Origin: Mycobacteriales bacterium
GTDB lineage: Bacteria > Actinomycetota > Actinomycetes > Mycobacteriales > QHCD01
Assembly: GCA_040414495.1 (NCBI GenBank)
Contig: JBEDUI010000239.1
Location: 11,501 to 75,500, forward strand
Length of the DNA: 64,000 nt
Direction: 5' to 3'
The position numbers and the translations under genes are program-made. Of this stretch, positions 25,737 through 61,684 are shown in pieces; positions within the stretch are counted from its first letter, which is position 1, and each line of letters begins with the position of its first letter. The notes under the pieces are model-generated. The model worked only from the letters and a program-made list of their open reading frames with translations, ran no database searches and was not told the DNA's origin.

Positions 25737-27026
<1,290 letters not shown>

Positions 27027-36838: not shown

Positions 36839-37822
36839 TCAGGGCAGGAGTTCGGCGCAGGCGGCAATCCGGTCCCGCCACCAGACCGCACGGTCCGGCG
36901 GCGCCGCCAACTCGGCCAGCAACGCCGGGTCCGGGTCGGGGCGACGTACCAGGCTGAACCCATCGACCGGCCGCAGCGGATCGTCCGTCACATCCCGGGT
37001 CATCAGGCTCAACGTGCCCAACCCGCAGGCGTGATCCAACTCCGGCAGCGCGGCGGCGAGCGCCAACCCCGCGGCCAACCCGACCGACGTATCCACCGCT
37101 GAGGAGACCACGCACGGCAGCCCGCACGCTTCGGCGACCGCGAGCGCCGCGGCCACCCCACCCAACGGCGCGACCTTGAGCACCGCGATGTCGGCGGCCC
37201 CGGCGACCGCGACCCGCAGCGGGTCCTCGGCCTTGCGGATCGACTCGTCCGCCGCGACCGGTACGTCGACCCGCCGCCGCAACGCGGCCAACTCCGCCAA
37301 GGTGGCGCACGGCTGCTCGACGTACTCCAACCCGTGGGCGGCCCGATCCAACGCGGCGACCGCACTCACCGCCTCCGGGACCGACCACCCACCGTTGGCG
37401 TCGACCCGGATCCGGGCGGACCGCCGCCCGGTCGCGTCCAAGGTGGACCGAACCGCCTCGATCCGGGCTATGTCGTCAGCCAACCGCTGCCCGACCTCGG
37501 CCACCTTGACCTTTACCGTCTGGGCGGCGGATTCGGCGACCAGCTGGCTGGCTTGCTCGGGGTCGCAGGCCGGTACGGTCGCGTTGACCGGAACCTTCGT
37601 CCGGACCGCGGCCGGCCACCGGGCCGTGCACGCCTCCCGCGCGGCAGCCAACCAGAGGGCTGCCTCGGGCGGTTCGTACTCCACGAACGGCGCGAACTCA
37701 CCCCACCCGGCCGGGCCGTGCAGCAGCGCCGCTTCTCGTACCGTGATTCCCCGAAATCGGGTCCGCATCGGAATTGACACCACATGAATGTCTACTGTGG
37801 ACAACCAATGCCCGGTGACCAT
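36839..37822 (-). CDS. menC: o-Succinylbenzoate synthase
   Basis: VVSIPMRTRFRGITVREAALLHGPAGWGEFAPFVEY is a typical actinobacterial MenC N-terminus. The ATG at 37822 is preceded by gagggg. The ORF-track upstream extension is Arg-rich. Confidence 0.9.
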   Translation of the reverse strand: MVTGHWLSTVDIHVVSIPMRTRFRGITVREAALLHGPAGWGEFAPFVEYEPPEAALWLAAAREACTARWPAAVRTKVPVNATVPACDPEQASQLVAESAAQTVKVKVAEVGQRLADDIARIEAVRSTLDATGRRSARIRVDANGGWSVPEAVSAVAALDRAAHGLEYVEQPCATLAELAALRRRVDVPVAADESIRKAEDPLRVAVAGAADIAVLKVAPLGGVAAALAVAEACGLPCVVSSAVDTSVGLAAGLALAAALPELDHACGLGTLSLMTRDVTDDPLRPVDGFSLVRRPDPDPALLAELAAPPDRAVWWRDRIAACAELLP

Positions 37823-37866
37823 GCTCACCCCTCGTACGAATCCCCGCTCGTTACAGTAATGACGAC

Positions 37867-39006
37867 ATGTCGACGCGCCAGTTGCGGGCCATAAACGCGC
37901 CCCTGAATCCGGATTCCATCGCCGCATTTCGACTAGCCGTACAGGCGGCGCTGAACGGCGGCGACGCGCTACTACCGGTGGGCCGGCCGACCGACGCGGC
38001 CGCATTCGAGCCCGACCTCGGCGTACCCGACGACACCGCCGTGGTGATCGGCACCTCCGGCTCCACCGGCGTACCAAAAGGCGTGCTTCTCTCCGCCGCC
38101 GCACTGCGCGCCTCGGCCACCGCGACCATGGACCGACTGGGTGGGCCGGGCCATTGGCTATTGGCATTGCCGGTTCACCACATCGCCGGCCTGCAGGTCG
38201 TGGTCCGCGGCCTCGTCGCGAATACCGAAGTGTCCACTGTGGATTCTTCGAATGGCTTTACGCCGCAGGCATTTCTGGCTGCGGTACGGAAATTGCCGGC
38301 CGGTCGGCGGTACGGCGCACTGGTGCCGACCCAGCTCGGCCGACTCCTGGATGCAGGCGGACCGGCGCTCGATGCGGCGGCCTCGTTCGCAGCCCTGATC
38401 ATCGGTGGCGCGGCCAGTTCGGCGACGCTGTTGACGCGGGCGCGCGCGGCCGGGCTGAACCCGATCACGACGTACGGGATGTCCGAGACCTGCGGCGGAT
38501 GTGTGTACGACGGCCGCCCGCTGGCCGGTGTCCGGGTCGATGTCGGCCCGGACGGGGCGGTCCGGCTCGGCGGTCCGACCTTGGCGAACGGTTATCTACG
38601 CAGGCCCGACCTGAGTGCGGCGGCCTTCGCCGACGGCTGGTTCCACACCCGCGATGTCGGGCGGTGGCTGCCAGACGGGCAATTGGAGGTGCTGGGCCGC
38701 TCGGATGACGTGGTGAACAGCGGTGGCGAGAAGATCCCGCCGATCCTGGTCGAACGCGCGCTGCTGGCCGACCCCAAAGTGCTCGCCGCGTGCGTACTCG
38801 GCATCCCGGATCCGGAATGGGGTCAAGTGGTTGCGGCCGCGGTGGTCAGCCGGGAAAACGTCGACCTGGATGGGTTACGAGCGACGGTCCGAGAAGCGGC
38901 CGGGCGGCACGCGGTACCCAAACGACTGATCGTGCTGGACGCGCTGCCGATGTTGGAGTCCGGAAAGGTGGATCGGACCGCGGTCCGCAAACTGTTGACG
39001 CCTTAG
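37867..39006 (+). CDS. menE: o-Succinylbenzoate-CoA ligase
   Basis: AMP-binding motifs IGTSGSTGVPKGV, YGMSETCGG, SGGEKIPP. Divergent from menC with a 44-nt spacer. Confidence 0.9.
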   Translation: MSTRQLRAINAPLNPDSIAAFRLAVQAALNGGDALLPVGRPTDAAAFEPDLGVPDDTAVVIGTSGSTGVPKGVLLSAAALRASATATMDRLGGPGHWLLALPVHHIAGLQVVVRGLVANTEVSTVDSSNGFTPQAFLAAVRKLPAGRRYGALVPTQLGRLLDAGGPALDAAASFAALIIGGAASSATLLTRARAAGLNPITTYGMSETCGGCVYDGRPLAGVRVDVGPDGAVRLGGPTLANGYLRRPDLSAAAFADGWFHTRDVGRWLPDGQLEVLGRSDDVVNSGGEKIPPILVERALLADPKVLAACVLGIPDPEWGQVVAAAVVSRENVDLDGLRATVREAAGRHAVPKRLIVLDALPMLESGKVDRTAVRKLLTP

Positions 39007-39263
39007 CGCTGCTCGTCAGAATCGTCGCCGCGCAACGCCGCCCGCAAATCGCGGCGGCTGGCGCGCTTGCGATCCAGCCGGCGTTCGATGTCACCAGCCA
39101 GCGACTGCCGCGGCCGCTTCAGCAGCAGCACCGAGACGGGCACGCTCAGCAGGAGCGCCGCCAGCAGTAGATAAAACGATCGCAGCCCGACCAGATAGAG
39201 CAGGCCGGCGAGCACGGCAAAGATGGCCAACCGGCCGATCAGATAGACAGACAAGGACCGCAC
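39003..39263 (-). CDS. Small two-TM membrane protein (DUF4229-like)
   Basis: 86 aa. Two hydrophobic helices (LIGRLAIFAVLAGLLYLVGL, FYLLLAALLLSVPVSVLLL) followed by a basic tail. Its stop overlaps the menE stop region. Confidence 0.7.
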   Translation of the reverse strand: MRSLSVYLIGRLAIFAVLAGLLYLVGLRSFYLLLAALLLSVPVSVLLLKRPRQSLAGDIERRLDRKRASRRDLRAALRGDDSDEQR

Positions 39264-39636
39264 AGCGCCTCACCAGTCCGGGATAGGAACGCGCTCAACG
39301 GTACGTCACGGGTCGACCGGCCGACGACACCGCATCGCCTATGATCGGCCGTAATCTGCCCAGACAGCGCCACATCAGCGGTACTCTGCTGCTGTCTGCC
39401 GAAACCGGCGCAGCGCTCTCAACGCCGCTGCCCTTCCGGGCATGATCATGGCCCGAAAGGCTGCCCTCTCGCCCACTGACAGTGCGTTATCGTCGCCCTA
39501 CTTTGGGTGGGTGCGGGGACAAGAGGCGCCACTGGCGCCGCCGATACGCGGAGTACGGCGTTACCTGTCTGTCGGTCATCGGGCACACTGGGCCTCGATG
39601 TGGCCTAAAGCCGAGCCGACAGCGGGAGGTGACGGC

Positions 39637-40242
39637 GTGCACGGGCCCGACTCGGATGCACCCGGTGAGCTCGTACGTCGTGCTGCCGCCGGTGATCAAC
39701 GAGCCTGGGACCAGCTCGTCGCCCGGTACAACGACTTGTTGTGGTCGGTCGCGCGTGGATATCGGCTGAGCACCGCCGACGCCGCCGACGCGATCCAGAC
39801 CAGCTGGCTACGGCTGCTGGAGAACCTCGACCGCATCAGCGACCCGGACCGGGTCGCCGCCTGGCTGGCTACAACAACCCGCCGCGAATGCCTCAAGGTC
39901 CTGCAGCGCGGCAGCCGGGAGCGTCCGCATCCGGCCGGGCACGCCACCTTGGACGGCATCGACGGCAGCGGACCGGTCGACGACCGGCTGCTGTTGGCCG
40001 AGCGCGACGCCGAGTTGTGGGAAGCGTTCACCGGCATGTCGGACCGCTGCCAGTGCCTGCTGCGGGTGCTGATGACATCGCCGCCGCCGTCGTACGAGGC
40101 CGTCGCCGCCGCGTTGGAGATGCCGATCGGCAGCATCGGGCCGACCCGGGCGCGATGCCTGGCCCGGTTGCGGACGTTGCTGGAGAAGCAGGGCGGGCTG
40201 TTCGACACCGAACCGCTCCGGCAGCGGGAGGGCCGCTCATGA
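39637..40242 (+). CDS. ECF-type sigma-70 family RNA polymerase sigma factor
   Basis: Region 2 (DQLVARYNDLLWSVARGYRL...DAIQTSWLRLL) and region 4 (CQCLLRVL...SYEAVAAALEMPIGSIGPTRARCLARLR). The GTG at 39637 is preceded by gggagg. Alternative in-frame starts lie upstream (39599). Confidence 0.85.
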   Translation: MHGPDSDAPGELVRRAAAGDQRAWDQLVARYNDLLWSVARGYRLSTADAADAIQTSWLRLLENLDRISDPDRVAAWLATTTRRECLKVLQRGSRERPHPAGHATLDGIDGSGPVDDRLLLAERDAELWEAFTGMSDRCQCLLRVLMTSPPPSYEAVAAALEMPIGSIGPTRARCLARLRTLLEKQGGLFDTEPLRQREGRS

Positions 40243-40700
40243 CCGACATGTTTGGTACCGACGACGAGTTCTTGGCCCGGCTGGGAACGGTGGCCGCCGT
40301 GGCTGACCCGATGCCCGAGAGCCTGACCAGCGCCGCCCAGGCCCTGTTCGGGTTGCGGCAGCTGGACGCCGAACTGGCCGAACTCGTATTGGACTCGGCC
40401 GACCTGCCGCAGACCCGCGAGCTGGCCGTACGGGGTGACGAGGAGCGGATGCTCTCGTTCGAAACCGGCCGGGCCGGCGTAGAGATGCAGATCAGCGAAC
40501 GCTCCGATCGTCGCGACATCGTCTGTCACGTCACCGGAGTACCGCTGGACGCAGCGATCCTCGAAACGCCCAAGGGTCAGCAACCGCTGCGGGTCGACGA
40601 CGACGTGCTGATTGCCCGCGACCTATCGGCGGGGCCGCTGCGGCTGCGGCTCACCACCACTGGCGGGGACAAGATCGTCACCAGCTGGGTCCGTATCTAA
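40239..40700 (+). CDS. Hypothetical soluble protein translationally coupled to the ECF sigma gene
   Basis: ATGA start/stop overlap with the sigma gene and strong G+C third-position bias. 153 aa with no TM segment and no HxxxCxxC zinc anti-sigma motif visible. Confidence 0.75.
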   Translation: MTDMFGTDDEFLARLGTVAAVADPMPESLTSAAQALFGLRQLDAELAELVLDSADLPQTRELAVRGDEERMLSFETGRAGVEMQISERSDRRDIVCHVTGVPLDAAILETPKGQQPLRVDDDVLIARDLSAGPLRLRLTTTGGDKIVTSWVRI

Positions 40701-40714
40701 CCCGCGGCTTCCGC

Positions 40715-40890
40715 AGGCGCGAACCTCAGGCAATCCGCGTAACGAACCTCGGGCAGGCCCGTACCTAACGAACCTCGGGCAACCTCCGGGTACGCAACAC
40801 ACCTCGGGCAACCTCCCGCCGCGCGACGAACCTCGGGCAACCCCCGTACCTAACGGACCTCGGGCAACGTCCCGCCGCGCGACGAACCAG
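40715..40890. repeat. Degenerate tandem repeat of about 27 nt (GAACCTCGGGCAAC core, 6 copies)
   Basis: Cores at about 40721, 40744, 40771, 40798, 40828 and 40855. The intervening segments are also mutually similar (cccgtacctaac x2, ctcccgccgcgcgac x2). Confidence 0.75.
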
Positions 40891-40892
40891 CG

Positions 40893-41013
40893 CCAGATCC
40901 CCAACTGCGGCGAGCGTGACACCAGGGTCGCCGAAAGCATGATCAACCCGCCCTGACGTCACGCTCGCTGCACCGCGGCCGGACCGACCCGCCCTGACGT
41001 CACGCTCGGTGCA
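40893..41013. repeat. Direct repeat of about 121 nt, copy 1; contains one 67-nt family A palindromic unit (40906-40972) plus an extra right arm
   Basis: tgcggcgagcgtgacaccagggtcg ... cgccctgacgtcacgctcgctgca. Nearly identical to 41130-41250. Confidence 0.85.
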
Positions 41014-41129
41014 GCGTGTGCGCCAATGTAGGTGCCGGCGCAGACAGCCGCCACGCAAACCCAGGCAGACTGAGCCACGCAAACGCGCCAATTCCCAACC
41101 GCTCTTCGAGCACGAGCTCTGCGAACCGG

Positions 41130-41250
41130 CCAGATCCCCAACTGCGGCGAGCGTGACACCAGGGTCGCCGAAAGCATGATCAACCCGCCCTGACGTCACG
41201 CTCGCTGCACCGCGGCCGGACCGACCCGCCCTGACGTCACGCTCGGTGCA
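41130..41250. repeat. Direct repeat of about 121 nt, copy 2 (family A unit plus extra arm)
   Basis: Same sequence as 40893-41013, read base by base: cagatccccaactgcggcgagcgtgacaccagggtcgccgaaagcatgatcaacccgccctgacgtcacgctcgctgcaccgcggccggaccgacccgccctgacgtcacgctcggtgca. Confidence 0.85.
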
Positions 41251-41282
41251 ATGTGTGCCGGCGCGGACGACTGCCGGATAGC

Positions 41283-41317
41283 AAAAAGCGGCGGTGGCCG
41301 GGTCAGGCCACCGCCGC
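41283..41317 (-). terminator. Intrinsic terminator of the LuxR / micro-ORF transcript
   Basis: Perfect 12-bp stem gcggcggtggcc / ggccaccgccgc (41288-41299 / 41306-41317) with a 6-nt loop. On the minus strand it is followed by ttttt (41283-41287). Confidence 0.7.
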
Positions 41318-41330
41318 GCAGTGCGCTGGG

Positions 41331-41489
41331 TCAGCGCTTGTTGTCGGTGCTGTCTTCGTCGCGTTCCCACTCGATCGCCTGCTCGACCTCTACGGTCGCG
41401 CTCTGGCTGGTCGTCGTCGTGGGATCCGGGGTCGGATCCGTGGTCGGCTGGGTCGGGTCCGGCTCGTCGGTCGGGTGATTCTTCGGCAT
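41331..41489 (-). CDS. 52-aa acidic Pro/Thr/Asp-rich micro-protein (not in the ORF track)
   Basis: The ATG at 41489 immediately follows the LuxR stop codon (41490-41492). Translation: MPKNHPTDEPDPTQPTTDPTPDPTTTTSQSATVEVEQAIEWERDEDSTDNKR. High G+C in third positions, and an intrinsic terminator lies just downstream. Confidence 0.5.
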   Translation of the reverse strand: MPKNHPTDEPDPTQPTTDPTPDPTTTTSQSATVEVEQAIEWERDEDSTDNKR

Positions 41490-42119
41490 TCAGATCAGTC
41501 CTTCTCGTACGGCGAATGCTACTGCGTGTGATCGGTTACGAAGGTGGAATCTCAGTGCAAGGTCGTGTAAAGCATTCTTAATCGTGCGTTCTGAATATGT
41601 GAGCTGGTTGGCGATTTCGGCTGTGCTGTAGCCCTCAGCGACCAATCTGAGGACCGTTAGCTCACGCTCTGTGAACCCTCCAAACGTGAGCCGCCCCGCG
41701 GTCGGCTCACCCGGACGGCCCCGGTCGAGCAGCCGTCCCAGCACGTCGGCCGGCAGAACGCCCTCGCCCTCGGCCACCCGCCGTACTGCTTGTACCAATC
41801 GCTCCGAGGTGGCTTCGGCGCGCCGTAGCAGTGCCCCGGTTCCGGCCTCCACGGCGGCAAGTACGGCCCGGCCATCGACCGACTCCACGACCAGCACTAC
41901 TTTCGGCTCGCCGCAACGGCGTACGTCGGTCAACGTCTCGCTCGTATGCTCGTCTAACGCATCCGCCACAACCACCGCCACATCGACCTCTGCGCCGGGC
42001 CGGGCCGAGGAATCAGTGGAGAGGACGACGAGATCGTGTGCTGCCGCCAGCGACGCCACCGTGCCGGCGTGCAGGATCGGGTCGCTCGCGTGCACCGCGA
42101 CGCGTATCGCCGTTGTCAT
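41490..42119 (-). CDS. LuxR/NarL-family response-regulator-like transcription factor (REC-like plus GerE HTH)
   Basis: C-terminal FTERELTVLRLVAEGYSTAEIANQLTYSERTIKNALHDL is a LuxR-type HTH. The N-terminal REC-like fold has a partly degenerate acidic pocket (HASD where DD is usual; ALLRR where a conserved K is usual). The ATG at 42119 is preceded by gggaggag. Confidence 0.85.
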   Translation of the reverse strand: MTTAIRVAVHASDPILHAGTVASLAAAHDLVVLSTDSSARPGAEVDVAVVVADALDEHTSETLTDVRRCGEPKVVLVVESVDGRAVLAAVEAGTGALLRRAEATSERLVQAVRRVAEGEGVLPADVLGRLLDRGRPGEPTAGRLTFGGFTERELTVLRLVAEGYSTAEIANQLTYSERTIKNALHDLALRFHLRNRSHAVAFAVREGLI

Positions 42120-42145
42120 TCGCTCCTCCCTTTTGTCCCTGCCAC

Positions 42146-42195
42146 GCTGTTCAGAGCGGCCGGCCCGGATGCCTGATACATCCGGCCTGAACAGC
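42146..42195. promoter_or_regulatory. Nested inverted repeats in the 49-nt LuxR / CHAT divergent spacer, spanning the CHAT ATG
   Basis: Outer arms gctgttcag (42146-42154) / ctgaacagc (42187-42195). Inner arms ccggatg (42065+100: 42165-42171) / catccgg (42179-42185). The ATG at 42169-42171 lies in the inner arm. Confidence 0.45.
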
Positions 42196-44832: not shown

Positions 44833-45365
44833 TTACGTTACCGGAGTGCGGATTCCCCTGTGACAGCGCGAAGTTCGTAGACCGAAACCAACGCAAATCG
44901 ACGATTCAGCGGTCGTATTGAGCTGCAGGTCTGTGAAATTCAGCGCAATGTAGTTGCATACGACGACGATGGTTGTGTTGGTTTGTTTTGCCGCTGTAGC
45001 TGGGCCTCTAGCTCGAACGGTGGCCGTGCGACCGGAGAGAGTCCCCCTAATCCCTCTCCGGTCACGGCCCCCCGAAATGCCCCCGCTGAACAGAACTCGC
45101 TACGTGTTCGCTGATACATCGGCCTGCCGTACAAGAAGAATTGAGTTACTGCGCACGACGAAACGCTCACATGAAGTGATCATTCGGCCACTCTTTCGGC
45201 GAAATACGGTGATGGACACCACGGGCTTATCGATTCTCGGGACAGACCGGCACCGACAGTGCTTCACTCATCGCCACAGCCAATTTCGAGCAGGATCGGG
45301 GCGCTGGTCGCCCCGTTTGGCATTTAGCTCGAGATGGGCCGACCTACGAGAGGACCAGGGGAGGG

Positions 45366-45578
45366 ATGATGGATCCACGAGAACGTCTCATGACCCCGGG
45401 TGAGGTTGCCACACTCTTCCGCGTCGACCCGAAGACTGTGACACGTTGGGCCGCGGCTGGACGCATCCACAGCATTCGCACCCCGGGTGGGCACCGCCGC
45501 TTCCTTGAATCTGAGGTTCAGGCACTGCTCAAGGAACTGTCAGGCGAAGGCGACTCATCTTCCGCCGCGTCGTCCTAA
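45366..45578 (+). CDS. bldC: BldC-like small MerR-family DNA-binding protein
   Basis: LMTPGEVATLFRVDPKTVTRWAAAGRIHSIRTPGGHRRFLESEVQALL closely matches Streptomyces BldC as I recall it. 70 aa. RBS ggggaggg. Confidence 0.85.
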   Translation: MMDPRERLMTPGEVATLFRVDPKTVTRWAAAGRIHSIRTPGGHRRFLESEVQALLKELSGEGDSSSAASS

Positions 45579-45677
45579 TCGGGTACGACTCGGTGCGTCA
45601 GGCCGGTCGAATTCCTCACAACCCGACCGCTGCTTGTCCCGGCCGCTAGGCTGGGACGGGTAGGGGGTGGTCCGCAG

Positions 45678-45896: not shown

Positions 45897-45900
45897 CGCT

Positions 45901-49793: not shown

Positions 49794-49796
49794 GTA

Positions 49797-51455
49797 TCAA
49801 TCCTCTCCGTCTGGCTCGGCCGGCTTATCGCGCAGCCGTGTGGTGATCTGCCGGAACTCGTCCGAGAAGACGCCGGCATCGGTGCGAGCCAGACCACCTA
49901 GCTCGATAACCGTACGATGTTCGCCCTGCCCGGGATCGCCTGGGGTGGCGCGCAACCAGAGTCGGCGCCGCCGGAGCCGCATCGACAGAACCAGGCCGAG
50001 CACGATGCAGCCGGCGGCGATCAGCACGATCGTCTGCGCCGGGTCGCGGGAGACCTGCAGGCTGGCCCATTCCTTGTAGCCGGTGAACGTGATCGTCGTG
50101 CCGTCGGCCAGCTTGTACGACTGGTTCGGGCCGAGGTTCTTGCGGCCGACCTGCTTCAACGCGCCGTTGGCCAACTGGTCGCGGTCGATCGAGTAGACCG
50201 ACTGTGGGGCACCGCTGTCCAGGCCGAGATTGCCTTCGTACGCGAAGATCGCGACCTTCGGTGCGGTGGCCTGCGGCCAGATCGAGGTGAGCACGCCCTT
50301 CTGGGTCTCGGCCGCGGTCGGCAGGAACAGGCCGTCGATTGCGATCTGTTTGGGTTTGGCGTCCGGCAGTTTGATCGCGCCCTGCGAGCTGTACGCCGAG
50401 TCCTGCGGCAGGAACGGGGCCGAGACGTTCTTGAACACCTGCCCGCTCGGGTCCTTGACCGTGAACGTCGGGGCGAATCCGTGGCCGAGCAGATAGAGCC
50501 GCAGGCCTTCGATCCGCAGCGGGTGATTCACCTGCAGTACGTCGTGCTTCTGCGGGCCGGAAACGCCTTCGGTGTAGGTGATGTCGCCCTTGAACGAGGA
50601 GGCGGTGCCGTCCTTGTCGTACGTCGCACTGAACTTGTTCAGGGTCATGCAGAACGGCGCGATCGACTGGCCGCTCACCAATTCACCCGGGTTGAACGAG
50701 TCGTACTGCTGGACGGTGTTACAGAACCCGTTCCCGTCCATCACGATGATCGAGCCGGTGTAGCCCCACAGCCGGCCGGCCGCGACGGCGAGCAGCAGCA
50801 CGGTCAGCGCGATGTGGAAAAGCAGGTTGCCGGTCTCGCGCAGGTAGCCCTTTTCCGCCGAGACCGTGACCACGCCGTCGGCCTCGTCCCGGGTGACGAC
50901 CCGCCAGCGACCGCGGCGCAGCGTGGCGGCGGCCCGGTCGGCCAGCTCGCGCGGACCGGCCTCGGTGTTCTCGTAGGACGTCGATTCCGGCAGCCGGTGG
51001 AAATGCCGCGGGGCCTTCGGCGGCTGGGCCCGCAACGCGCGAGCGTGCACCCGGATCCGCGGCACCAGGCAGCCGATCAACGAGACGAACAGCAGGATGT
51101 AAATGGCCGCGAACCACGGCGCGCCGAAGACGTTGAACAGGGACAGCTTGTCCATCAGCGGACCGAGCGTCGGGTGCGCCGCCAGGTAGGTGTCGACCTT
51201 CTGCGGGTTGAGCGAGCGCTGCGGCAGCAACGAGCCGGGGATAACGCCCAGGGCCAGCAGGAACAGCAGAACGAGCGCGGTGCGCATGCTGGTCAGCCAG
51301 CGCCAACCCCGGATCGCCCAGGCGAACCGGCGACCGGGCGGCATGACCGGCGGAGCCGGTTTGGTGGAGAGCGAATCGACCGAGTCGACCGCGACCGTGC
51401 CAACCGAGGTATCGACCCGCTGCGGGTCCTGCCGGTCGTCGTCCACTGTGGTCAC
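49797..51455 (-). CDS. resB: Cytochrome c biogenesis protein ResB/CcsB
   Basis: 552 aa with N-terminal TM segments, a large extracytoplasmic domain and a C-terminal TM. Lies between ccdA and ccsA. The GTG at 51455 overlaps the ccdA stop. Confidence 0.9.
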   Translation of the reverse strand: MTTVDDDRQDPQRVDTSVGTVAVDSVDSLSTKPAPPVMPPGRRFAWAIRGWRWLTSMRTALVLLFLLALGVIPGSLLPQRSLNPQKVDTYLAAHPTLGPLMDKLSLFNVFGAPWFAAIYILLFVSLIGCLVPRIRVHARALRAQPPKAPRHFHRLPESTSYENTEAGPRELADRAAATLRRGRWRVVTRDEADGVVTVSAEKGYLRETGNLLFHIALTVLLLAVAAGRLWGYTGSIIVMDGNGFCNTVQQYDSFNPGELVSGQSIAPFCMTLNKFSATYDKDGTASSFKGDITYTEGVSGPQKHDVLQVNHPLRIEGLRLYLLGHGFAPTFTVKDPSGQVFKNVSAPFLPQDSAYSSQGAIKLPDAKPKQIAIDGLFLPTAAETQKGVLTSIWPQATAPKVAIFAYEGNLGLDSGAPQSVYSIDRDQLANGALKQVGRKNLGPNQSYKLADGTTITFTGYKEWASLQVSRDPAQTIVLIAAGCIVLGLVLSMRLRRRRLWLRATPGDPGQGEHRTVIELGGLARTDAGVFSDEFRQITTRLRDKPAEPDGED

Positions 51456-52962: not shown

Positions 52963-53156
52963 CGCCGTCCAGTGTGACGGTCGCGTAGTCCGCGATTTGC
53001 TTGGGGGTCACTACACCGCAAGGCGGAGGTGGGGTTATCTGTCCCCGTCTGCCGGGGATGCCGGATTCCGGCGCGCGGCCACAGTCGATCGGGCGCCGGT
53101 TATCACCCGGAACGTCGTTCCTGTGAATCCGTTTTTACGCACTCGTGTTAGCTGAA

Positions 53157-53789
53157 TTACGCGCCCTTGCTGGCCGAGGCCGGGGTCGGGCCGGCCGGCT
53201 CGGTGTAGTCGATCTCGATCAGCCGGTCATCGTCGTACACCAGGCTGGTGACCGAGGCCAACGCGCACTGCCGCTTGCGCGGGTCGTGCCACAGGTGCTT
53301 GCCCTCGAGCTTCAGCCGGGTGACCCAGATCGCCAGCTGATGGCTGACGCAGACCGCCTCGTGTCCGCGTGCGGCCGCGCGGGCCGCCCCCACCGCCTCA
53401 AGCATCCGGCGGGCGATGTGCGAATACGGCTCACCCCAGGACGGCCGGAACGGGTTGTAGAGCTTGGTCCAGCTGCGCGGGTTCCGCAGCACGCCATCGC
53501 CGACGCCGAACTTCTGCCCCTCGAACGCATTGCTGGGCTCGATCAACCGCCCGTCCAATGCGACCTCCAGGCCGCTGGTCGCGGCCAGCGGCGCGGCCGA
53601 TTCCTGCGCCCTTTCCAGCGGGCTCGACACCAGGTAAGTAATGTCGCGTGTGGACAGTTCGCGGGCCGCTTTCTCCACCATTTCCTTGCCGGCGGCGCTC
53701 AGGTGGTAATCCGGCAACCGTCCATAAAGGATTCGCTGCGGATTTTCCACCTCACCATGACGAAGCAGGTGTACGACCGTTTTGCTCAT
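53157..53789 (-). CDS. Histidine phosphatase (phosphoglycerate mutase) family protein
   Basis: MSKTVVHLLRHGEVENP (RHG motif). The ATG at 53789 is chosen because the upstream ORF-track extension is Arg-rich. Confidence 0.85.
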   Translation of the reverse strand: MSKTVVHLLRHGEVENPQRILYGRLPDYHLSAAGKEMVEKAARELSTRDITYLVSSPLERAQESAAPLAATSGLEVALDGRLIEPSNAFEGQKFGVGDGVLRNPRSWTKLYNPFRPSWGEPYSHIARRMLEAVGAARAAARGHEAVCVSHQLAIWVTRLKLEGKHLWHDPRKRQCALASVTSLVYDDDRLIEIDYTEPAGPTPASASKGA

Positions 53790-53836
53790 CGGGCGCCTTC
53801 CGGGCTGGTTTCGGCAGCGACTGTCACACGGGGATT

Positions 53837-55153
53837 TCAGGAAGAATGCACCGCGGCCGCGGCCTCGGCCGCTTTCGGCAGCGCGGCGGCGATCCGGCCC
53901 AACGCCTCGGCATCGTGCGCGGCGGAAAGGAACCACGCCTCGTACGAGGACGGCGGCAGATATACGCCCTGGGCCAGCATGGTGTGGAAGAACGCGGCGA
54001 ACGCCTCGGTGTCCTGCTTGCGGGCGTCGTCGTAGTTGCGTACCTCGTCGGCGGTGAAGAACACCGAGAACAGGCTGCCGGCGTTCTGCACCCGGTACGG
54101 CACGCCGGCGGCGTTCAACGCGTCGCCGGCCAGGCGCGCGACCTCGGAGGACGCGGCGTCGACCGCGGCGTAGACGTCCGGGTCACAGTGCCGCAACGTG
54201 GCCAAGCCGGCGGCCACCGCGACCGGGTTACCGGACAGCGTCCCGGCCTGGTACACCGGTCCGGCCGGAGCCAGGTGGCCCATCACGTCGGCCCGACCAC
54301 CGAACGCCGCGGCCGGCATGCCACCGCCCATCACCTTGCCGAACGTGAACAGGTCCGCGTCGACCGGATCCAGGCCGTACCACCCGGCCTGGCTGACCCG
54401 GAACCCGGTCATCACCTCGTCGAGCACAAGCAACGCCCCGGCCGCAGTGGTGATCTCGAGCAGCTTGGCGTTGAAATTGTCCTGCGGCGGAACGACTCCC
54501 ATGTTCGCCGCGGCCGCTTCGGTGATCACGCAGGCGATCTCGGAGCCGTACCGGTCGAACGTCTCGCGCACGGCCGGAATGTCGTTGTACGGCAGCACGA
54601 TCGTGTCGCCGGCCTGCGCCCCGGTCACCCCGGGCGTGTCCGGCAGCGCGAACGTCGCGACGCCCGACCCGGCCGCGGCCAGGAGCGCGTCGACGTGCCC
54701 GTGGTAGCAACCGGCGAACTTCACCACCTTGCTGCGCCCGGTGAAACCGCGGGCCAGCCGGATGCTCGACATCGTCGCCTCAGTGCCGGAGTTGACCAGC
54801 CGGACCTGCTCGACCGGCGGCACCCGGCCGACGATCTCCTCGGCCAACTCGATCTCGCCGGCCGACGGCGTACCGAACGACAGCCCGTGCGATGCGGCCT
54901 CGCGTACCGCCTCAACCACGGCCGGATGGGCGTGACCGAGAATCATCGGTCCCCATGACCCGACCAGGTCGACGTATTCCCGTCCATCGGCGTCGGTGAG
55001 GTAAGGACCCTTGCCGGCGGCCATGAACCGGGGCGTACCGCCCACAGCCCGGAACGCGCGTACCGGCGAATTCACCCCGCCGGGCGTCACCTTCTGCCCG
55101 CGCGCGAAGAGCTGCTGCGACGCCGGAGCCTCCTGCGAGTACGTCATGCGCAC
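53837..55153 (-). CDS. hemL: Glutamate-1-semialdehyde 2,1-aminomutase
   Basis: [22 protein letters not shown] and the PLP-Lys region FGKVMGGG; 438 aa. Confidence 0.95.
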
Positions 55154-55389
55154 AGTCTTTCAAGGTCGTTTTGGACACGCTCACGCGGCCAGGCTTGGGC
55201 GTTTCCGCTATGTGTACGGAATCGGTATTGCGCGTTTTGCGGCGAATACCTCCGTAACCCATTTGTTGCCGGATCTCCTACCGGATCAATGCATGGGATT
55301 GCTCCGACTGGGTACGAGCAAGACACCTAGCCGGCGGTTCCGGATTGAGCTTTCTGGATCCCGAACCACATACCTCGGAGGTGAGAGCC

Positions 55390-56370
55390 GTGGCAGGACG
55401 GATGCGAGTGCCGCGGACGCGTGGAGTTTTCAGTGGTCTGCTGCTCGTGTTGCTCGGCGCCTGGGCGGCCCTGGTCGCGTTCGTTGGGCCGTATTTCCAT
55501 TACGCGTATACGCCGGACTCCACGTGGACCTACACCAGCGACCGGCTGTGGATGCAGATCCTGCCCGGCGCCGGCGCCGCGCTCGGCGGCCTGATCGTGC
55601 TGTTCAGCGCGCACCGGGCCATCGCGAGCCTGGGCGCCTGGCTGGCGGCGATTTGTGGTGCGTGGCTGGTCGTAGGACCGGTGCTCTCGACGCTGCCGGG
55701 CGTGCCGAATGTGGGTACGCCGACCGGCGGGACCACCCGGCAGGCGCTCGAAGCGCTCGGTTTCTTCTTCGGCGTGGGCGTGGCGATCGTGTTCTTCGCC
55801 GCGGTGGCGCTGGGTCGCTTCACTGTTATCGGCGTCCGGGAGACCCGGGCCCGCGAACAAGAGGAGCTGGAGGCGGAGCGTCTGGCCACAATGGACAATT
55901 CGGCGCTCGCTGCTACCGGCCTTACCAGCGGATTCGCCGATACGCCGGCGCGGTCCACAGTGGACGCTGGGCCGACGACGGGCTCGCACTGGTATCCGGG
56001 GTCCAGCCCCGGGCGTGCCGAGTCCAGCCCACGGCCTCCCGACCCGGCCGTCTCGGGGTCACCCGACGCGACCGTCCCGGTGAACCGGTCTCGGCCCGGC
56101 GGGCCGCACGCTGACCCGGCGGCTCCGACCAACCGGACCGAGCCCGGGATGGGACCTGACCCCGCTGTTCCGGTTGACCGAACCGAGCCCGGGGTCGGCC
56201 GGCACGCCGAACCGCCACCCGCCGCTGGCGACCCGAATGCGGACCGGACCACCGAACTTCCCTCGGCGCCGCCCTTGAGCGAACAGGGCGAGCAGCAGGG
56301 GTCCCGGTTCATGGACCGGCTGCGGCCGCACCATGTCGGCGCATCCTCGAACCGAAGCCACAACGACTGA
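55390..56370 (+). CDS. Four-TM membrane protein with Pro-rich disordered tail (paralog A)
   Basis: The N-terminal 150 residues or so are paralogous to the 57493-59268 product (RVPRTRGV...LLVLLGAWA...GPYF..AYTPD..WTYTS.RLW..ILPGAGA). The GTG at 55390 is preceded by ggaggtga. Confidence 0.8.
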   Translation: MAGRMRVPRTRGVFSGLLLVLLGAWAALVAFVGPYFHYAYTPDSTWTYTSDRLWMQILPGAGAALGGLIVLFSAHRAIASLGAWLAAICGAWLVVGPVLSTLPGVPNVGTPTGGTTRQALEALGFFFGVGVAIVFFAAVALGRFTVIGVRETRAREQEELEAERLATMDNSALAATGLTSGFADTPARSTVDAGPTTGSHWYPGSSPGRAESSPRPPDPAVSGSPDATVPVNRSRPGGPHADPAAPTNRTEPGMGPDPAVPVDRTEPGVGRHAEPPPAAGDPNADRTTELPSAPPLSEQGEQQGSRFMDRLRPHHVGASSNRSHND

Positions 56371-56529
56371 CCGGCACCTCAAAATGAATGGCACCTCAAA
56401 AGTCGGCGGCGCAGGGCATCTCACCCTCGCCGCCGACTTTGCTTTGATCCCGGGCTTGACCGGATGAGTTGCGACCCAGCTGAGGCGCCGAGCGGATGCC
56501 ACGTTTTCATCTGGCTGCGGCGCCGGCGT

Positions 56530-56730
56530 GTGACGCGGATACCGTTTTGATCTGGCCTGAGCACCGAAGTCGACCCGGACACCGCTTTGACCCAGCCCGA
56601 GCACCGAAGTCGACCCGGACACCGCTTTGACCCGGCCCGAGCGCCGACGTTTGACCGGGCTGACGCGTTTTGACCCGGCTGCGGCGCGGAGCTTTCACCC
56701 GGATGACTCGTTTTGACCCGCTGCAGCACC
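56530..56730. repeat. Degenerate tandem repeats (TTTGACCCGGC-type), including two exact-like 40-nt units
   Basis: gagcaccgaagtcgacccggacaccgctttgaccc(a/g)gccc at 56559-56598 and 56599-56638, with decayed copies on both sides. Confidence 0.75.
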
Positions 56731-56734
56731 CACG

Positions 56735-56795
56735 TTCATGATCATGATGGCGTACGTCAACGATCTGCGTACAAAAGCCATCACGATCACGAAAA
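56735..56795. repeat. Palindromic element, family B, copy 2
   Basis: tcatgatcatgatggc ... gccatcacgatcacga (14 of 16 bp). Shares catgatc-tga-tgg with the copies at 36691 and 57091. Confidence 0.7.
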
Positions 56796-56855
56796 TGCGC
56801 CCGCTGGCCAGTGCTCCTGCCCGCCGAGACCGGCCGCAGACCGAGCGCCGACCGG

Positions 56856-57075
56856 ACCGCGCCGAACCACCGACGAACCCCGCACTCCGGCCCACTGAAA
56901 CGGGCCACAGCGGAGCAGCGACCTGCCGAGCCGGACCGCCGACGAACCCCGCACTCCGGCCCGCTGAAACCCTCCACAAACCGAACGGCAACCAGCCGAG
57001 CCGGACCGCCGACGGACCCCGCACTCCGGCCCACTGAAACCCTCCACAAACCGAGCAGCGACCGGACCGCACGAC
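56856..57075. repeat. Tandem repeat of about 70 nt, about 3 copies
   Basis: gccgagccggaccgccgacg(a/g)accccgcactccggccc(g/a)ctgaaaccctccacaaaccga... at 56935-57004 and 57005-57074, plus a diverged copy at 56856-56934. Confidence 0.8.
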
Positions 57076-57090
57076 ATCCCGGCGGCATTT

Positions 57091-57148
57091 CCTTGATCGT
57101 GAGTCGATTTGCTACGAATTTCGATACCAAATCCACTCACGATCAAGG
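57091..57148. repeat. Palindromic element, family B, copy 3
   Basis: ccttgatcgtgagtcgattt (57091-57110) pairs with aaatccactcacgatcaagg (57129-57148), 19 of 20 bp. Confidence 0.8.
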
Positions 57149-57492
57149 TCAGGTTTGTTGCGGAAAGCCGTACATACGGGATCATCAGGCCAGATACGGT
57201 CCGAACCTCGCGCGTGAAGCAAGCCGACGGAACGTCAATCGAGCAAGTCTGACGGGGCGACGACAACCGCCTTAGATATTCGCCCAGCCGCCGCCGTATT
57301 TCATATCGATCGACGCCGAAAAGCCCTACAACAATGCGGTTTCGCCACAGCACGCCTGTCTGGGGCGAATAGGCGTTACGCGAAAGCCGGCTAACTGATT
57401 TATCTCTCAGTTACCCGCCAGCGAGATTGAGGCAGCCACCGCTTCTGGTGTTAGTTGGCGTTATGCCGGCGACCGCCAACAATGAGGTGACT

Positions 57493-59268
57493 GTGGTGAA
57501 TGCGCGAAAGCGGGTGCCCCGTACGCGAGGCGTACTTTGCGGTTTCCTGCTGGTCCTGCTCGGTGCGTGGGCCGGGCTGGCCCCGTTTATCGGGCCGTAT
57601 TTCAACTTCGCCTACACACCTGACACCAACTGGACGTACACCAGCGGCCGGCTGTGGCTGGAGATTCTGCCCGGCGCGGGGGCGTTCCTGGGCGGGCTGA
57701 TCGTCATGAGCAGCGTGCACCGCGTTTTTGCCATGTTCGGCGGGTGCCTGGCGTCGCTGGCCGGAGCATGGCTGGTGGTCGGGCCACCACTGTCGGGCAT
57801 GTACTCGATACCGCACGTAGGGACGCCTGTCGGTACGCACAAGCGCCAGGTGCTGGAGACCCTCGGGTTCTTCACCGGGCTTGGTGTGTTGATCGTCTTC
57901 CTGGCCGCGGTGGCGCTGGGCCGCTTCGCGGTCATCGGTATCCGCGAGGTCGAGGAGGCCGAGGAGGAGGCCGAAGCCGAGGAGCGGTGGTCCAGGCTCG
58001 AGGGGTACGGGACGGACGACATCGCCGGCCTTGGGCCGGCCGATTCGGACGCGGACGACTCAGAGGATGACGGGGTGGAGTGGCCGACCCGCCTGGCCAG
58101 TACGAGTTCGACCGGCGCCGGCGGGGCGAGTGCGGAGTCAACGAGTGCGGGCCTCGCTGGTGCGGGTCTGAGCGGTGCTGGCTCGACCGCTGCAGGACTT
58201 GCTGGTACGGGGCTGAGCGGTGCCGGCTCGACTGCGGCCGGGCTTGCTGGAGCCGGCCTGGCTGGCGCCGGCAAGACGGGCACGGGCCGCACCGGCGGCG
58301 GCCCGACCGGTGGGCGCTACGGCGGTGCGGGCTTTACCGGCGCCGGCAACCGCGGGGGCGACCCGGCCGGTGGCGGCATAACGAGTACCGGCTCGGCCGA
58401 TGCTGGCTCGACGGGACTTGGTCCGACCGGAGTTGCGCCGACGGGGTTTGGCCTGACTGGTGCCGGTCGCGGCGGAACCGGCGGCAACGGAATCGGCCGG
58501 AGCGGTGCCGGTATCCCCGGCGCGGGCCTGAGTGGGGGCAACCCGGCGGGCCCGCGTCCGAGCGGGGGCAACCGCGACTTCGGTACGACCGCTCGTCCCG
58601 ACGACTCCTGGTCCACCAGCGGCGGACTGCCCGCACCACGGCCGTCCACAATGGACAGCGGCCCGGACGCGACCGGTCGGATGCCGGTTCCGCGGCTCGA
58701 CGCGACCTGGCCCGGCACCGGGCGTGAGCGCTATCAGCCGACCCCACCGAGCAATCCGCAACCGCCGGTATCCCCGGATGCCTGGGCTCTACAGCATGAC
58801 TACCCGGCGGCTGACCGCGACTTCGGGACGAACGAGCCGCCCTACCGGGCCGACCACGACTTCGGCGCGACCGAATCGCCGTACCAGGCTGACCGCGACT
58901 TCGGCGCCAACGAACCGCCCTACCGATCCGATCGCGACTTCGGCGCCAACGAGCCTTCTTACCAGGCTGACCGCGACTTCGGCGCGACCGAGCCGTCCTA
59001 CCGGGCCACCACCAATACCGGCATCGACCGCGGTCGCCCGGCCGCGGACGACATGGATGACGCCACAATGGTCAGCCCGTCGCTCGGGTCCGCGTCACCA
59101 AGCTCATTGCCGCGGCCACGCAGGTGGGCCGGTTCGGTGACGATTCGGCAGCCGGCCGCGTCGTCCGACAAAGGCAGCGACAACAGCGCCGACGAGCACG
59201 ACGCGTTCATCGAAGAACTGCGCCGCCACCACGCGAGCCGCGCCGGCGAATCTCCGTACGAGGGCTGA
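57493..59268 (+). CDS. Four-TM membrane protein with long Gly/Ala/Thr- and DRDFG-repeat tail (paralog B)
   Basis: The N-terminus is paralogous to the 55390-56370 product. GTG at 57493/57496 is preceded by gaggtga; alternative starts at 57463 and 57427. Confidence 0.8.
   Translation: MVNARKRVPRTRGVLCGFLLVLLGAWAGLAPFIGPYFNFAYTPDTNWTYTSGRLWLEILPGAGAFLGGLIVMSSVHRVFAMFGGCLASLAGAWLVVGPPLSGMYSIPHVGTPVGTHKRQVLETLGFFTGLGVLIVFLAAVALGRFAVIGIREVEEAEEEAEAEERWSRLEGYGTDDIAGLGPADSDADDSEDDGVEWPTRLASTSSTGAGGASAESTSAGLAGAGLSGAGSTAAGLAGTGLSGAGSTAAGLAGAGLAGAGKTGTGRTGGGPTGGRYGGAGFTGAGNRGGDPAGGGITSTGSADAGSTGLGPTGVAPTGFGLTGAGRGGTGGNGIGRSGAGIPGAGLSGGNPAGPRPSGGNRDFGTTARPDDSWSTSGGLPAPRPSTMDSGPDATGRMPVPRLDATWPGTGRERYQPTPPSNPQPPVSPDAWALQHDYPAADRDFGTNEPPYRADHDFGATESPYQADRDFGANEPPYRSDRDFGANEPSYQADRDFGATEPSYRATTNTGIDRGRPAADDMDDATMVSPSLGSASPSSLPRPRRWAGSVTIRQPAASSDKGSDNSADEHDAFIEELRRHHASRAGESPYEG
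58810..59004 (+). repeat. In-frame 39-nt tandem repeat x5 encoding A-D-R-D-F-G-x-x-E-P-x-Y-x
   Basis: ADRDFGTNEPPYR ADHDFGATESPYQ ADRDFGANEPPYR SDRDFGANEPSYQ ADRDFGATEPSYR. Confidence 0.9.
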
Positions 59269-59318
59269 TGAGCGGACTACGGCCAGGCTCGTGCACACGG
59301 GCCCGGCCGGACCGCTCG

Positions 59319-59780
59319 CTAGGCCGGCCCCTCGATCAGAGCGGCCCGTAACGCGGCGGGGTCGCGGCACGGAACGAGAACGACCGTGCCATCGGTGAGC
59401 CGCAGCGGCATCGGCAACCGTCCTTTGGGGACAGCCATGCCGCCGCCGAGAATCCGCGCCCCGACCGGCGGTCCGCCGGCCTCGTCGTCAGCCAGATACG
59501 AATAATCCACAGTGGACAATGGCAAGGCTTCCCGGCCGACGCGCAACGTCGTGGCAGTGACCGTAACCGTGCCGAATTGCATTCGGGCGTAGCTCGCGAT
59601 GCCGATCACGCCCGCGACCGCTACGAACGCCAGCACCCAGCCGAGCAGGTGCACAGTGCGGCCCGGCAGGAACGCGTCGACCAGCACACCGACAAGGCAG
59701 AGCAGTACAACAACACCGAGCGGGCGCCAGGATGCGCCGCGCTCGGTGTAACGAATCTCGCCAACAAACTCGCCAGGCAT
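59319..59780 (-). CDS. Two-TM membrane protein with C-terminal soluble domain (DUF3093-like by recollection)
   Basis: 153 aa. Helices LGVVVLLCLVGVLVDAFL and LLGWVLAFVAVAGVIGIASY. Good codon bias. Confidence 0.7.
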   Translation of the reverse strand: MPGEFVGEIRYTERGASWRPLGVVVLLCLVGVLVDAFLPGRTVHLLGWVLAFVAVAGVIGIASYARMQFGTVTVTATTLRVGREALPLSTVDYSYLADDEAGGPPVGARILGGGMAVPKGRLPMPLRLTDGTVVLVPCRDPAALRAALIEGPA

Positions 59781-59838
59781 GTCGTTTACGGCCTGTCCCG
59801 CGGATCTTCAGCGGCGCGGATCCGCGCCCGGCCAGACC

Positions 59839-60870
59839 CTAGTCGAGCCAGCCGGCGACCTCCACCGCCCAGTAACTCAGCACGATGTCCGCGCCGGCTC
59901 GCCGGATGGCGGTCAGCGTCTCCATCACGGCCCGGCGCCGGTCGATCATTCCCGCCGCAGCGGCCGCTTCCAGCATCGCGTACTCACCGGACACCTGGTA
60001 CGCCGCAACCGGCACGTCCACCGCCTCGCGGACCTTGGCCAGCACGTCGAGGTAGGCCAACGCCGGCTTCACCATCACCGCGTCGGCGCCCTCGCCCAGA
60101 TCCAACGCAACCTCACGCAGCGCTTCGTCGACCGAACGAGCCGGATCCTGTTGGTATCCCGCCCGATCGCCGAACTGCGGGGCACCCTCGGCCGCCTCGC
60201 GGAATGGTCCGTAGAACGCCGACGCGTATTTCGCCGAATAGGCCAGAATCGGGATGTCGGCGAAATCGGCATCGTCCAGCGCGGTCCGGATCGCCGCCAC
60301 CTGGCCGTCCATCATGCCGCTGGGCGCTACGACGTGCGCGCCGGCCGATGCCTGCGCCGCCGCGATTTCGGCGTACCGCTGCAACGTCGCGTCATTGTCG
60401 ACCTGACCGTCCACACGCAACGGTCCACAGTGGCCATGGTCGGTGTATTCGCACAAACACAGGTCGGCCATAAGCACGGTGTCGTCGCCCAGATCCGAGC
60501 GCAATGCCCGCAACGCCTGGGAAATGATCCCGTCCTCGGCGTCGGCCTGGGTGCCCAGCGGGTCTTTTTCCGCTGGAATACCGAAAAGCATCAGGCCGCC
60601 GATCCCCGCGTTCACCGCGGCCGCGGCCTCTTTGCGCAGCGACTCGACCGTGTGCTGCATGACGCCCGGCATCGAGGAAACCGGCACCGGCTCGTCGATG
60701 CCTTCCTTGACGAATACCGGCAGCACCAGATCGGCCGCGCTGATCCGGGTCTGGCTGAACAGACCGCGCAACGCCGGAGTACGACGCAGCCGCCGCGGCC
60801 GTACCGCCGGAAATCCACCGGACCGGGCCGGTGGGCTGGCCGCCGCATGCCGGGCCCGTTGCCGCGACAC
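59839..60870 (-). CDS. hemB: Porphobilinogen synthase (delta-aminolevulinate dehydratase), canonical-size core
   Basis: RPRRLRRTPALRGL, DLVLPVFVKEG, CLCEYTDHGHCG, active-site VKPA and YQVSGEYAM. The GTG at 60870 gives 343 aa. The same frame stays open upstream to the ATG at 61680 (next feature). Confidence 0.9.
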   Translation of the reverse strand: MSRQRARHAAASPPARSGGFPAVRPRRLRRTPALRGLFSQTRISAADLVLPVFVKEGIDEPVPVSSMPGVMQHTVESLRKEAAAAVNAGIGGLMLFGIPAEKDPLGTQADAEDGIISQALRALRSDLGDDTVLMADLCLCEYTDHGHCGPLRVDGQVDNDATLQRYAEIAAAQASAGAHVVAPSGMMDGQVAAIRTALDDADFADIPILAYSAKYASAFYGPFREAAEGAPQFGDRAGYQQDPARSVDEALREVALDLGEGADAVMVKPALAYLDVLAKVREAVDVPVAAYQVSGEYAMLEAAAAAGMIDRRRAVMETLTAIRRAGADIVLSYWAVEVAGWLD

Positions 60871-61680
60871 ATCCCGGCGCGACGACTCGCGTCGCGGCGA
60901 ATCGACCACCGGCGAATCCTCACGCGACCGCAACGCGCGCGCGGATTCCGACCGGCGCGACGCCGGGCGTATATCCGCCGAATTCGCGACAACGCTGGAA
61001 TTCGCCGCTGCGACAGGGGTTTTCGTACCGGGCTCGGGAACGGCAGCGTCGGATTTCGCCGCCGCCGGCGATTCCGGACCCGTTTTGTCCACTGTGGATT
61101 CCGCACGTCTCGCGGCCGCAGCGGATTCCGTACGCCCCGCGAGGGATTCCGTACGCCCCGGAGCGCTCGGCGATTTCGCAGCGCCAGCGGGCTCCGCACC
61201 CGCGGAATCGGCCGCCGACTTCGTGGAAGCCGTGCCGGCAGCGGATTCGGTCGATAGCCGGTTCTGCTCGGAAGCGCCGGCGGGAGCGCCCGCAACCGGC
61301 GCTCCCGACCCCGGCTCGGCCTTGGGTCCACCGGCAGCCTCAGTGGCGGCTTTCGGATTCGAGGCGGGCTGCGATGCCTCGATGGACGGCAGTGGCACGG
61401 TTGAATTCATCCCCTCGGATGCTGGCTCGTCGGGTGTGGACTCGTTCGCCTGCTGCTTGGCCGGTGGTTCGGCCGCGGTACGAGACGGGTCAGGCGGACT
61501 CACCCGACCCGTCTCGTGCGGCTGCGATCCCCGCGACTTGCGCTGCGGCGGGGCCGGTGGCTGGGGCGGCGGTGCGATCAGCGACGTCTCGATATGCACC
61601 GACTCCTGGCCGTTGGCGTGCGCGACCGGACCCCGATCCGGCAGCGGCATGCTGCCCGTCTGCGCACTCTTGTCGGACAT
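60871..61680 (-). CDS. Open in-frame Ala/Pro/Ser/Glu-rich extension upstream of hemB (N-terminal disordered extension, or an untranslated spacer that happens to stay open)
   Basis: No stop codon between the ATG at 61680 (4 nt after the hemD TAG) and the hemB core. Third-position G+C is high in this frame. Composition is typical of disordered segments, with the Glu-Ser dipeptide (gaatcc) recurring about 10 times. Confidence 0.4.
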
Positions 61681-61684
61681 GGCG

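Follow-up and report, generated by a model that had tools for sequence, protein, structure and literature searches.

A dispersed palindrome maintained at the DNA level in a Mycobacteriales genome, with a PadR-family regulator as candidate reader

Our subject is a short palindrome, TCCACWGTGGA, that recurs within a 64,000-nucleotide stretch of DNA from a Mycobacteriales bacterium (assembly GCA_040414495.1, contig JBEDUI010000239.1, positions 11,501 to 75,500; hereafter "the window"), and throughout the genome that contains it. Note that this genome, referred to as G000, is a metagenome-assembled genome (MAG) from an uncultured organism (6.85 Mb, 66% G+C, 296 contigs). Our principal conclusion, held with high confidence, is that purifying selection maintains the palindrome, with full 13-mer form GTCCACWGTGGAC (GTCCAC-W-GTGGAC), as a double-stranded DNA signal to which genes adjust. 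With moderate confidence, we propose from sequence comparisons that the signal is read by a dimeric PadR-family winged-helix regulator (PF03551 plus PF10400) encoded upstream of prfB. Taken together, the two proposals form our best overall explanation, which we consider rather probable. An initial annotation of the window had already suggested selection on the DNA, with proteins accommodating the motif where a Ser-Thr-Val-Asp tetrapeptide is tolerated. Codon spelling, conservation in a congener, and the variability of orthologous protein columns all bear this out.

Nine exact copies of the 11-mer are found in the window, where 0.04 are expected, and there are 17 copies with no more than one mismatch (0.75 expected). 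Genome-wide, 268 exact copies compare with an expectation of ~1–3, which is ~200 times chance, and a further 802 copies have one mismatch. This is one exact copy per 25 kb or, allowing one mismatch, one copy per 6.4 kb. Arms separated by a 1-bp spacer co-occur 299 times in G000, compared with only 3–10 times for spacers of 0 or 2–7 bp, 5 times for the everted order and 11 times for the direct order. The central base is usually A (139) or T (129), rather than C (13) or G (18), despite the GC-rich genome. The base at position -1 is G in 61% of copies, that at +11 is C in 52%, and no sequence conservation was found in the flanks beyond 13 bp. Copies are spread in a near-Poisson manner, with a mean of 1.97 and a variance of 2.32 in 50-kb bins, and these bin counts revealed no macrodomain restriction in G000. 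The window is mildly copy-rich (nine copies compared with 2.5 expected at the genome density; p = 0.001). No preferred spacing was found between close site pairs, and no Rfam families were found in the window. A full-text literature search for the 11-mer, the 13-mer, or a highly iterated palindrome in Actinobacteria returned nothing relevant.

The imprint of the motif on the proteome is considerable. In predicted G000 proteins, STV[DE] occurs 195 times, roughly three times the 61 occurrences expected from amino-acid frequencies, and each of the 23 alternative orders of these residues occurs 42–86 times. Of the 195 peptides, 122 (63%) are spelled with the motif, and so with the rare Thr codons ACA or ACT. 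These two codons account for only 10% of Thr codons in G000, and codon usage predicts 1.8 such spellings. The same is seen for peptides encoded in the other two frames. P[QL]W occurs 302 times (241 expected) and [FLIV]H[SC]G 84 times (64.5 expected), each excess matching the number of motif-coded instances. In sum, the motif contributes a surplus of ~130 STV[DE], ~60 P[QL]W, and ~20 [FLIV]H[SC]G peptides. We conclude that the over-represented peptides exist owing to the DNA motif.

Conservation was measured with 50 sites from a congener, G001, which has 159 copies. Thirty-six of these sites align to G000, with a mean nucleotide identity of 76.5%. The motif is kept at 26, being identical at 18 and altered only by an A/T swap of the centre at the other 8. 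Of the control 11-mers drawn from these alignments, 9.1% are fully conserved (p = 1e-19). Scoring the 14 unaligned sites as lost still leaves p = 1e-14. Some sites persist over greater distances. The menE site has an exact counterpart in three genomes of two further genera, where protein identity is 62–63% and the flanks differ, while a Geodermatophilaceae MAG has lost the motif loop of menE by deletion. Similarly, an exact copy occupies the menC site in G001, G004, and G007, and it is G000 that shows one-base decay. In Phytohabitans flavus, which belongs to a different family, the motif is common to 2 of 11 sites alignable with G000.

The protein positions involved are not conserved for their own sake. 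As a single joined query, 40 STV[DE] segments were compared with five motif-free genomes, giving 80 orthologue cells for 22 segments. STV[DE] was present in none of the 80 cells, so the situation that would have argued for selection on the protein, namely STVD spelled with other codons in orthologues, was not encountered. Equally, none of the 80 cells had a gap at the tetrapeptide. Identity of the orthologues to G000 is 0.33 at the four motif residues and 0.59 in the flanks (p = 2e-5). When the motif-free orthologues are compared with one another, the figures are 0.34 for motif columns and 0.55 elsewhere (p = 3e-4). We conclude that motif-coded columns are intrinsically variable and less conserved than their surroundings. 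At a few sites, the x-T-V-D context is partly conserved. There was no gene-level conservation bias; by hand count, homologues (E <= 1e-9, five motif-free genomes) were found for 25 of the 40 segments with the motif and for 24 of 40 random ones. Since there are no gaps at the tetrapeptide, and no conserved flanks, copies arise by substitution at variable positions rather than by insertion. In our proposed mechanism, copies would appear by point substitution at intrinsically variable residues and, once there, would be held long-term across genera of the family.

The genic copies in G000 divide between S-T-V-D/E (122 copies, 58%), x-P-Q/L-W (65, 31%), and x-H-S/C-G (25, 12%), with 56 copies uncalled or intergenic. 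Uniform frame usage is rejected (p = 2.5e-15), and the observation that most copies are read as Ser-Thr-Val-Asp holds loosely. A model of independent codons predicts 60% S-T-V-D/E, 19% x-H-S/C-G, and 21% x-P-Q/L-W, and three-periodic Markov models of order 1–3 bracket the observed split. The S-T-V-D frame dominates because TCC, GTG, and GAC are common codons there. Furthermore, the ratio of observed to expected copies is large in each frame (213 for S-T-V-D/E, 135 for x-H-S/C-G, and 320 for x-P-Q/L-W), and non-coding DNA has 56 copies compared with 0.3–0.7 expected, an enrichment of ~100-fold. Given enrichment to a broadly similar degree in every frame and in non-coding DNA, together with the fit of the codon model, the frame bias is a by-product of codon usage and not a special filter. 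The same split is apparent among 30 sites of P. flavus (20 S-T-V-D/E, 1 x-H-S/C-G, 8 x-P-Q/L-W, and one non-coding). The suggestion that copies often lie in tails or N-termini did not hold genome-wide, where relative position along proteins is flat and flank composition has only a marginal trend to disorder (p about 0.05–0.1).

Two further observations concern individual reading frames. For approximately 10 G000 genes (e.g. C242:27978, C32:3070, and C91:8928), the best-scoring predicted start is the GTG of the palindrome. The resulting proteins, which include HisC-, RibH-, and RNR-beta-like examples, begin V-D; the predicted starts may be either genuine or an artefact of the gene caller. In P. 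flavus, copies at L181/L182 and L198/L199 form pairs ~400 bp apart in repeated domains with conserved D-P-Q-W, or in W-Y-S-T-V-E paralogues. Here, the protein motifs are already suited to the DNA motif.

Divergent spacers are depleted of copies (7 of 49; p = 0.005) and copies are commoner past gene ends. Hence, the bulk of copies are not classical operators. Apart from PadR, the genes downstream of intergenic copies share no theme. The PadR exception emerges from two motif-poor genomes of a class-wide scan, G304 and G277, that have only two 13-mers each. In both, the pair is 33–34 bp apart, directly after TTGACA, in the promoter region from which a PadR-family gene and a DUF1707 gene diverge. 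The only PadR homologue in G000 (C163:4877-5395) is encoded directly upstream of prfB and has 43% identity to the PadR of G304 (E = 3e-45). All three PadRs with the site share an identical recognition helix, TRSQVYREL. At G000 padR, an exact palindrome at -60 is followed by TAGAAT, and a copy with 2 mismatches lies over the start codon. We obtained DNA for eight further padR-prfB orthologues (L211–L218). In five of these (L211, L212, L214, L215, and L218), an exact copy is 18–70 nt upstream; the remaining three (L213, L216, and L217) have the variant GTCCA(C)-N10-11-CACAGTGGAC at the same place. The palindrome is thus a feature of the padR promoter in nine of nine orthologous loci, including G000, and is exact in six. 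The most likely role of the palindrome is therefore as the putative operator of the PadR regulator itself, whose predicted target we write as GTCCACAGTGGAC. From the same co-occurrence, the strongest candidate for a reader of the dispersed copies is PadR. Its nearest solved relative is the dimeric PadR of Bacillus subtilis; the PadR-DNA structures (PDB 5X11 series) likewise involve a two-domain dimer (PF03551 plus PF10400) and a palindrome in the regulator's own promoter. Searching the literature for PadR with DUF1707 or prfB yielded nothing useful.

The neighbourhood of padR-prfB is of separate note. Tad pilus genes (TadE-like and T2SSF) lie directly upstream at L210 2982-4219, L211 1-1397, and L213 26-909. 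This places them beside padR-prfB in G000, the congener, and one metagenome contig; at the remaining orthologous loci, this position is occupied by different genes.

Distribution within the GTDB order Mycobacteriales is uneven, with several families rich in the motif and others devoid of it. A Geodermatophilaceae MAG has 122 copies, a Jatrophihabitantaceae MAG 129, and P. flavus 196. Micromonospora, Actinoplanes, and Pseudosporangium have no more than 4 copies, and Streptomycetaceae and Nocardioides have none. Among 300 genomes sampled across the class, only G000 exceeds 2 copies of the 13-mer, and a reversed control pattern gives the same. Recent loss of the motif in one genome, G002, was considered and rejected; its orthologous sites are no nearer to the motif than those in distant motif-free genomes. 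On the P. flavus chromosome, the first 100 copies listed include 44 within 0.93 Mb (0.11-1.04 Mb). Judged from the copies listed, this stretch is ~2.6 times as dense as the 3 Mb that follow (p = 4e-6).

How might an operator come to be so widespread? We suggest that, in part of the Mycobacteriales, it would have multiplied to hundreds of conserved, mostly intragenic, copies, at which PadR may serve chromosome-wide binding, titration, or as a roadblock. A specific form of this idea, which we offer tentatively and regard as doubtful, is that the PadR encoded upstream of prfB became a genome-wide DNA reader, with intragenic operators serving chromosome-wide binding or titrating the repressor. If titration applies, padR-prfB expression would follow DNA content. 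Dispersed sites that organise chromosomes are known from matS/MatP, where matS is a 13-bp palindrome, NBS/Noc, and SBS/SlmA. Those sites are also short palindromes scattered through genes, at a density of similar order, and have a dimeric reader, which here is only putative. Unlike those systems, the present motif has no macrodomain in G000, a higher copy number, and no ParB paralogue that tracks it. A ParB paralogue was rejected as reader, as there is one ParB_N per genome everywhere.

Several points weigh against our interpretation. The link to PadR is one of promoter co-occurrence only. Known PadR boxes, with the form ATGT-N8-ACAT and present in a handful of copies, are unlike a compact 13-mer with hundreds of intragenic copies. 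It is also not obvious why a local repressor would cause strong selection at each of so many intragenic sites. With regard to reading frames, copies are somewhat too many in frame 2 and too few in frame 1 for the codon model (p = 4.5e-4), which means that codon usage does not explain everything. Finally, our gene caller, a simple codon-model program, marks 84% of the genome as coding, and some "intergenic" copies are probably genic.

The first two of these points equally suit an alternative, which we consider unlikely, in which some other symmetric DNA-binding protein reads the palindrome and the padR promoter is merely one of its targets. Set against this, both copies are in the PadR promoter in the two genomes with only two copies in total, and the recognition helix is identical among the three PadRs with the site. 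Self-repression is also the rule in the PadR family.

Copies in the window are as follows, with coordinates counted from its first nucleotide and gene identities assigned with Pfam, in agreement with the names given initially.

5120..5130, one mismatch (centre C), EamA/RarD-like transporter gene, read R-P-P-W
5997..6007, exact, RMKL/UPF0020 methyltransferase gene (the THUMP methyltransferase of the initial annotation), read R-P-Q-W
6157..6167, one mismatch, same methyltransferase gene, read S-I-V-E
6177..6187, exact, same methyltransferase gene, read R-P-Q-W
12551..12561, one mismatch, patatin gene, read S-I-V-E
13749..13759, exact and a full 13-mer, spacer of convergent glyoxalase-like and polyprenyl synthase genes
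26532..26542, exact, nuoF, read V-H-S-G, adjoining the conserved GAGAYICGE motif
27222..27232, one mismatch, nuoE, read A-P-L-C
37791..37801, one mismatch, menC N-terminus, read S-T-V-D, coding strand TCC ACA GTA GAC (Val is GTA)
38233..38243, exact, menE, read S-T-V-D
51442..51452, one mismatch, resB codons 2-5, read T-T-V-D, absent in the close relative L001
52167..52177, exact and a full 13-mer, start of the hypervariable CcdA loop, read S-T-V-D
55954..55964, exact, indel-rich tail of membrane-protein paralogue A, read S-T-V-D
58645..58655, one mismatch, tail of membrane-protein paralogue B, read S-T-M-D
59506..59516, exact, DUF3093 gene, read S-T-V-D, conserved exactly in L001
60424..60434, one mismatch, hemB, read G-H-C-G inside a conserved protein motif
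61088..61098, exact, hemD-hemB spacer (~880 nt) without coding signal

With the new gene calls, the copies and peptides first described for the window are present as reported, save for three corrections. First, the copy at 61088 had been assigned to a hemB extension with the peptide ESTVDKTG. The stretch has a codon score of -0.11, as against +0.38 for the core of hemB, and lacks conservation in L001. Hence, this is probably not a protein. Second, the "STLD" at 37436 is a chance match, having several mismatches and being conserved in no relative, and was rejected as a member. Third, menC cannot use the palindrome's GTG as an alternative start, as proposed, because the coding strand has GTA. 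Exact genic copies in the window divide as STVD 4, RPQW 2, and VHSG 1. The CcdA copy opens a loop of highly variable length; in L001 its centre is C and, via ACG, the peptide is unchanged.

Some further features of the window deserve mention. The hemD-hemB spacer (60808-61687) has no coding signal in any frame, is unconserved in L001, and is unusually long for this genome. Stretches 55377-55858 and 57486-57994 both align to a single L001 region. Hence, the two membrane-protein genes appear, from this alignment, to be a lineage-specific duplication with divergent, disordered tails. At 52985-53161, L001 has ~1.6 kb of extra DNA. The ResB proteins of Micromonospora (L029, L036, and L040) start M-T-T-V-D-D, like V-T-T-V-D-D in the window, without the DNA motif.

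The remaining alternatives assign the palindrome to other kinds of system. Very unlikely, in our assessment, is a molecular drive like that of uptake sequences, with an uptake or recombination machine preferring palindrome-bearing fragments so that copies spread without any function at individual sites. The coding-region footprint of the uptake signal sequences (USS) of Pasteurellaceae and the DNA uptake sequences (DUS) of Neisseria was described by Findlay and Redfield in 2009 (PMC2817400). The palindrome shares that footprint: maintenance at the DNA level, frames with preferred codons, peptides over-represented two- to three-fold, poorly conserved residues, and no gene-level bias. The tad pilus genes adjoining padR in G000 and its congener also fit. 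However, one copy per 25 kb is ~25-fold sparser than USS and DUS, which occur at about one per kb (PMC2817400). In addition, our palindrome is perfect, with a free A/T centre, and has an operator-like setting in a regulator's promoter. To our knowledge, competence has not been described in motif-bearing organisms.

Highly improbable is a HIP1-like origin, with the palindrome tied to a DNA methyltransferase or to very-short-patch repair that converts near-copies to copies. HIP1 (GCGATCGC) is a highly iterated 8-bp palindrome of cyanobacteria. Like HIP1, our motif is a short palindrome strongly over-represented genome-wide, mostly intragenic, without settled function, and patchy among lineages. 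Unlike HIP1, it is 11–13 bp long, far less dense, and unaccompanied by C5 or N6/N4 methyltransferases. In a survey of PF00145 and PF01555 only, no cognate enzyme co-occurred with the motif. G000, G001, and nearly all of the family lack C5 methyltransferases (PF00145). N6/N4 methyltransferases (PF01555) do not track the motif, and are missing in G001 and several other motif-rich genomes. Moreover, the one-mismatch copies show no shortage of C-to-T variants.

Slightly less probable still is the notion of two overlapping, head-to-head, DnaA boxes that titrate DnaA. GTCCACA matches 7 of the 9 bases of TTGTCCACA, the central W supplies the terminal A to one arm, and three near-copies cluster in an AT-richer spacer on contig C102. 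Yet the 5' TT of TTGTCCACA is not enriched (T is at 20% at -3 and 27% at -2), and only the exact palindromic arrangement is. The origin of replication (oriC), in the dnaA-dnaN spacer on C260, has ordinary, single, degenerate boxes and no palindrome. DnaA is also universal, but only part of one order has the motif. The C102 spacer, which is outside the window, is a 1.7-kb non-coding region of lower GC content (C102:16914-18608). Its three near-copies lie within 45 bp, and it also has four TGCAGCGAACGTGACA in inverted pairs and GC-rich tandem repeats. It was rejected as oriC, since its neighbours are recG and a UvrD-like helicase gene and C260 carries the true origin.

Two explanations have a negligible chance of being correct. 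Selection for S-T-V-D as a peptide could draw on the few x-T-V-D contexts and the Micromonospora ResB N-terminus, but is contradicted by the rare ACW codons, the enrichment in the two other frames and non-coding DNA, the lack of the peptide in motif-free orthologues, and free exchange of Q/L and S/C with the centre base. A miniature mobile element inserted in frame would accord with a 7-nt gap at the resB start in L001, and indels at one spacer site, but not with the gapless alignments, the lack of conservation past 13 bp, or sites that are orthologous across genera. The likeness initially drawn to Rickettsia palindromic elements, which are mobile insertions of 100–150 bp, falls with it; both are repeated palindromic DNA read in frame within genes, but here 11–13 bp have arisen by substitution without indels, and no inserted element of at least 100 bp adding a protein segment was seen.

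The coding footprint that we describe is already known from uptake sequences. What is unusual is its apparent source, an ordinary-looking regulator operator that seems to have multiplied intragenically in some lineages and not in their relatives. Consequences for annotation follow: in motif-rich genomes, S-T-V-D, P-Q/L-W, and H-S/C-G should not be taken as protein motifs. The question is directly testable in P. flavus NBRC 107702, a cultured strain with a full genome sequence and 196 copies. In each genome, a DNA-level signal overrides codon and amino-acid preference at ~200 protein positions, and these sites remain constant as the protein sequence around them diverges. If PadR does read the palindrome genome-wide, it would be the demand of that reading that rewrites these ~200 positions.

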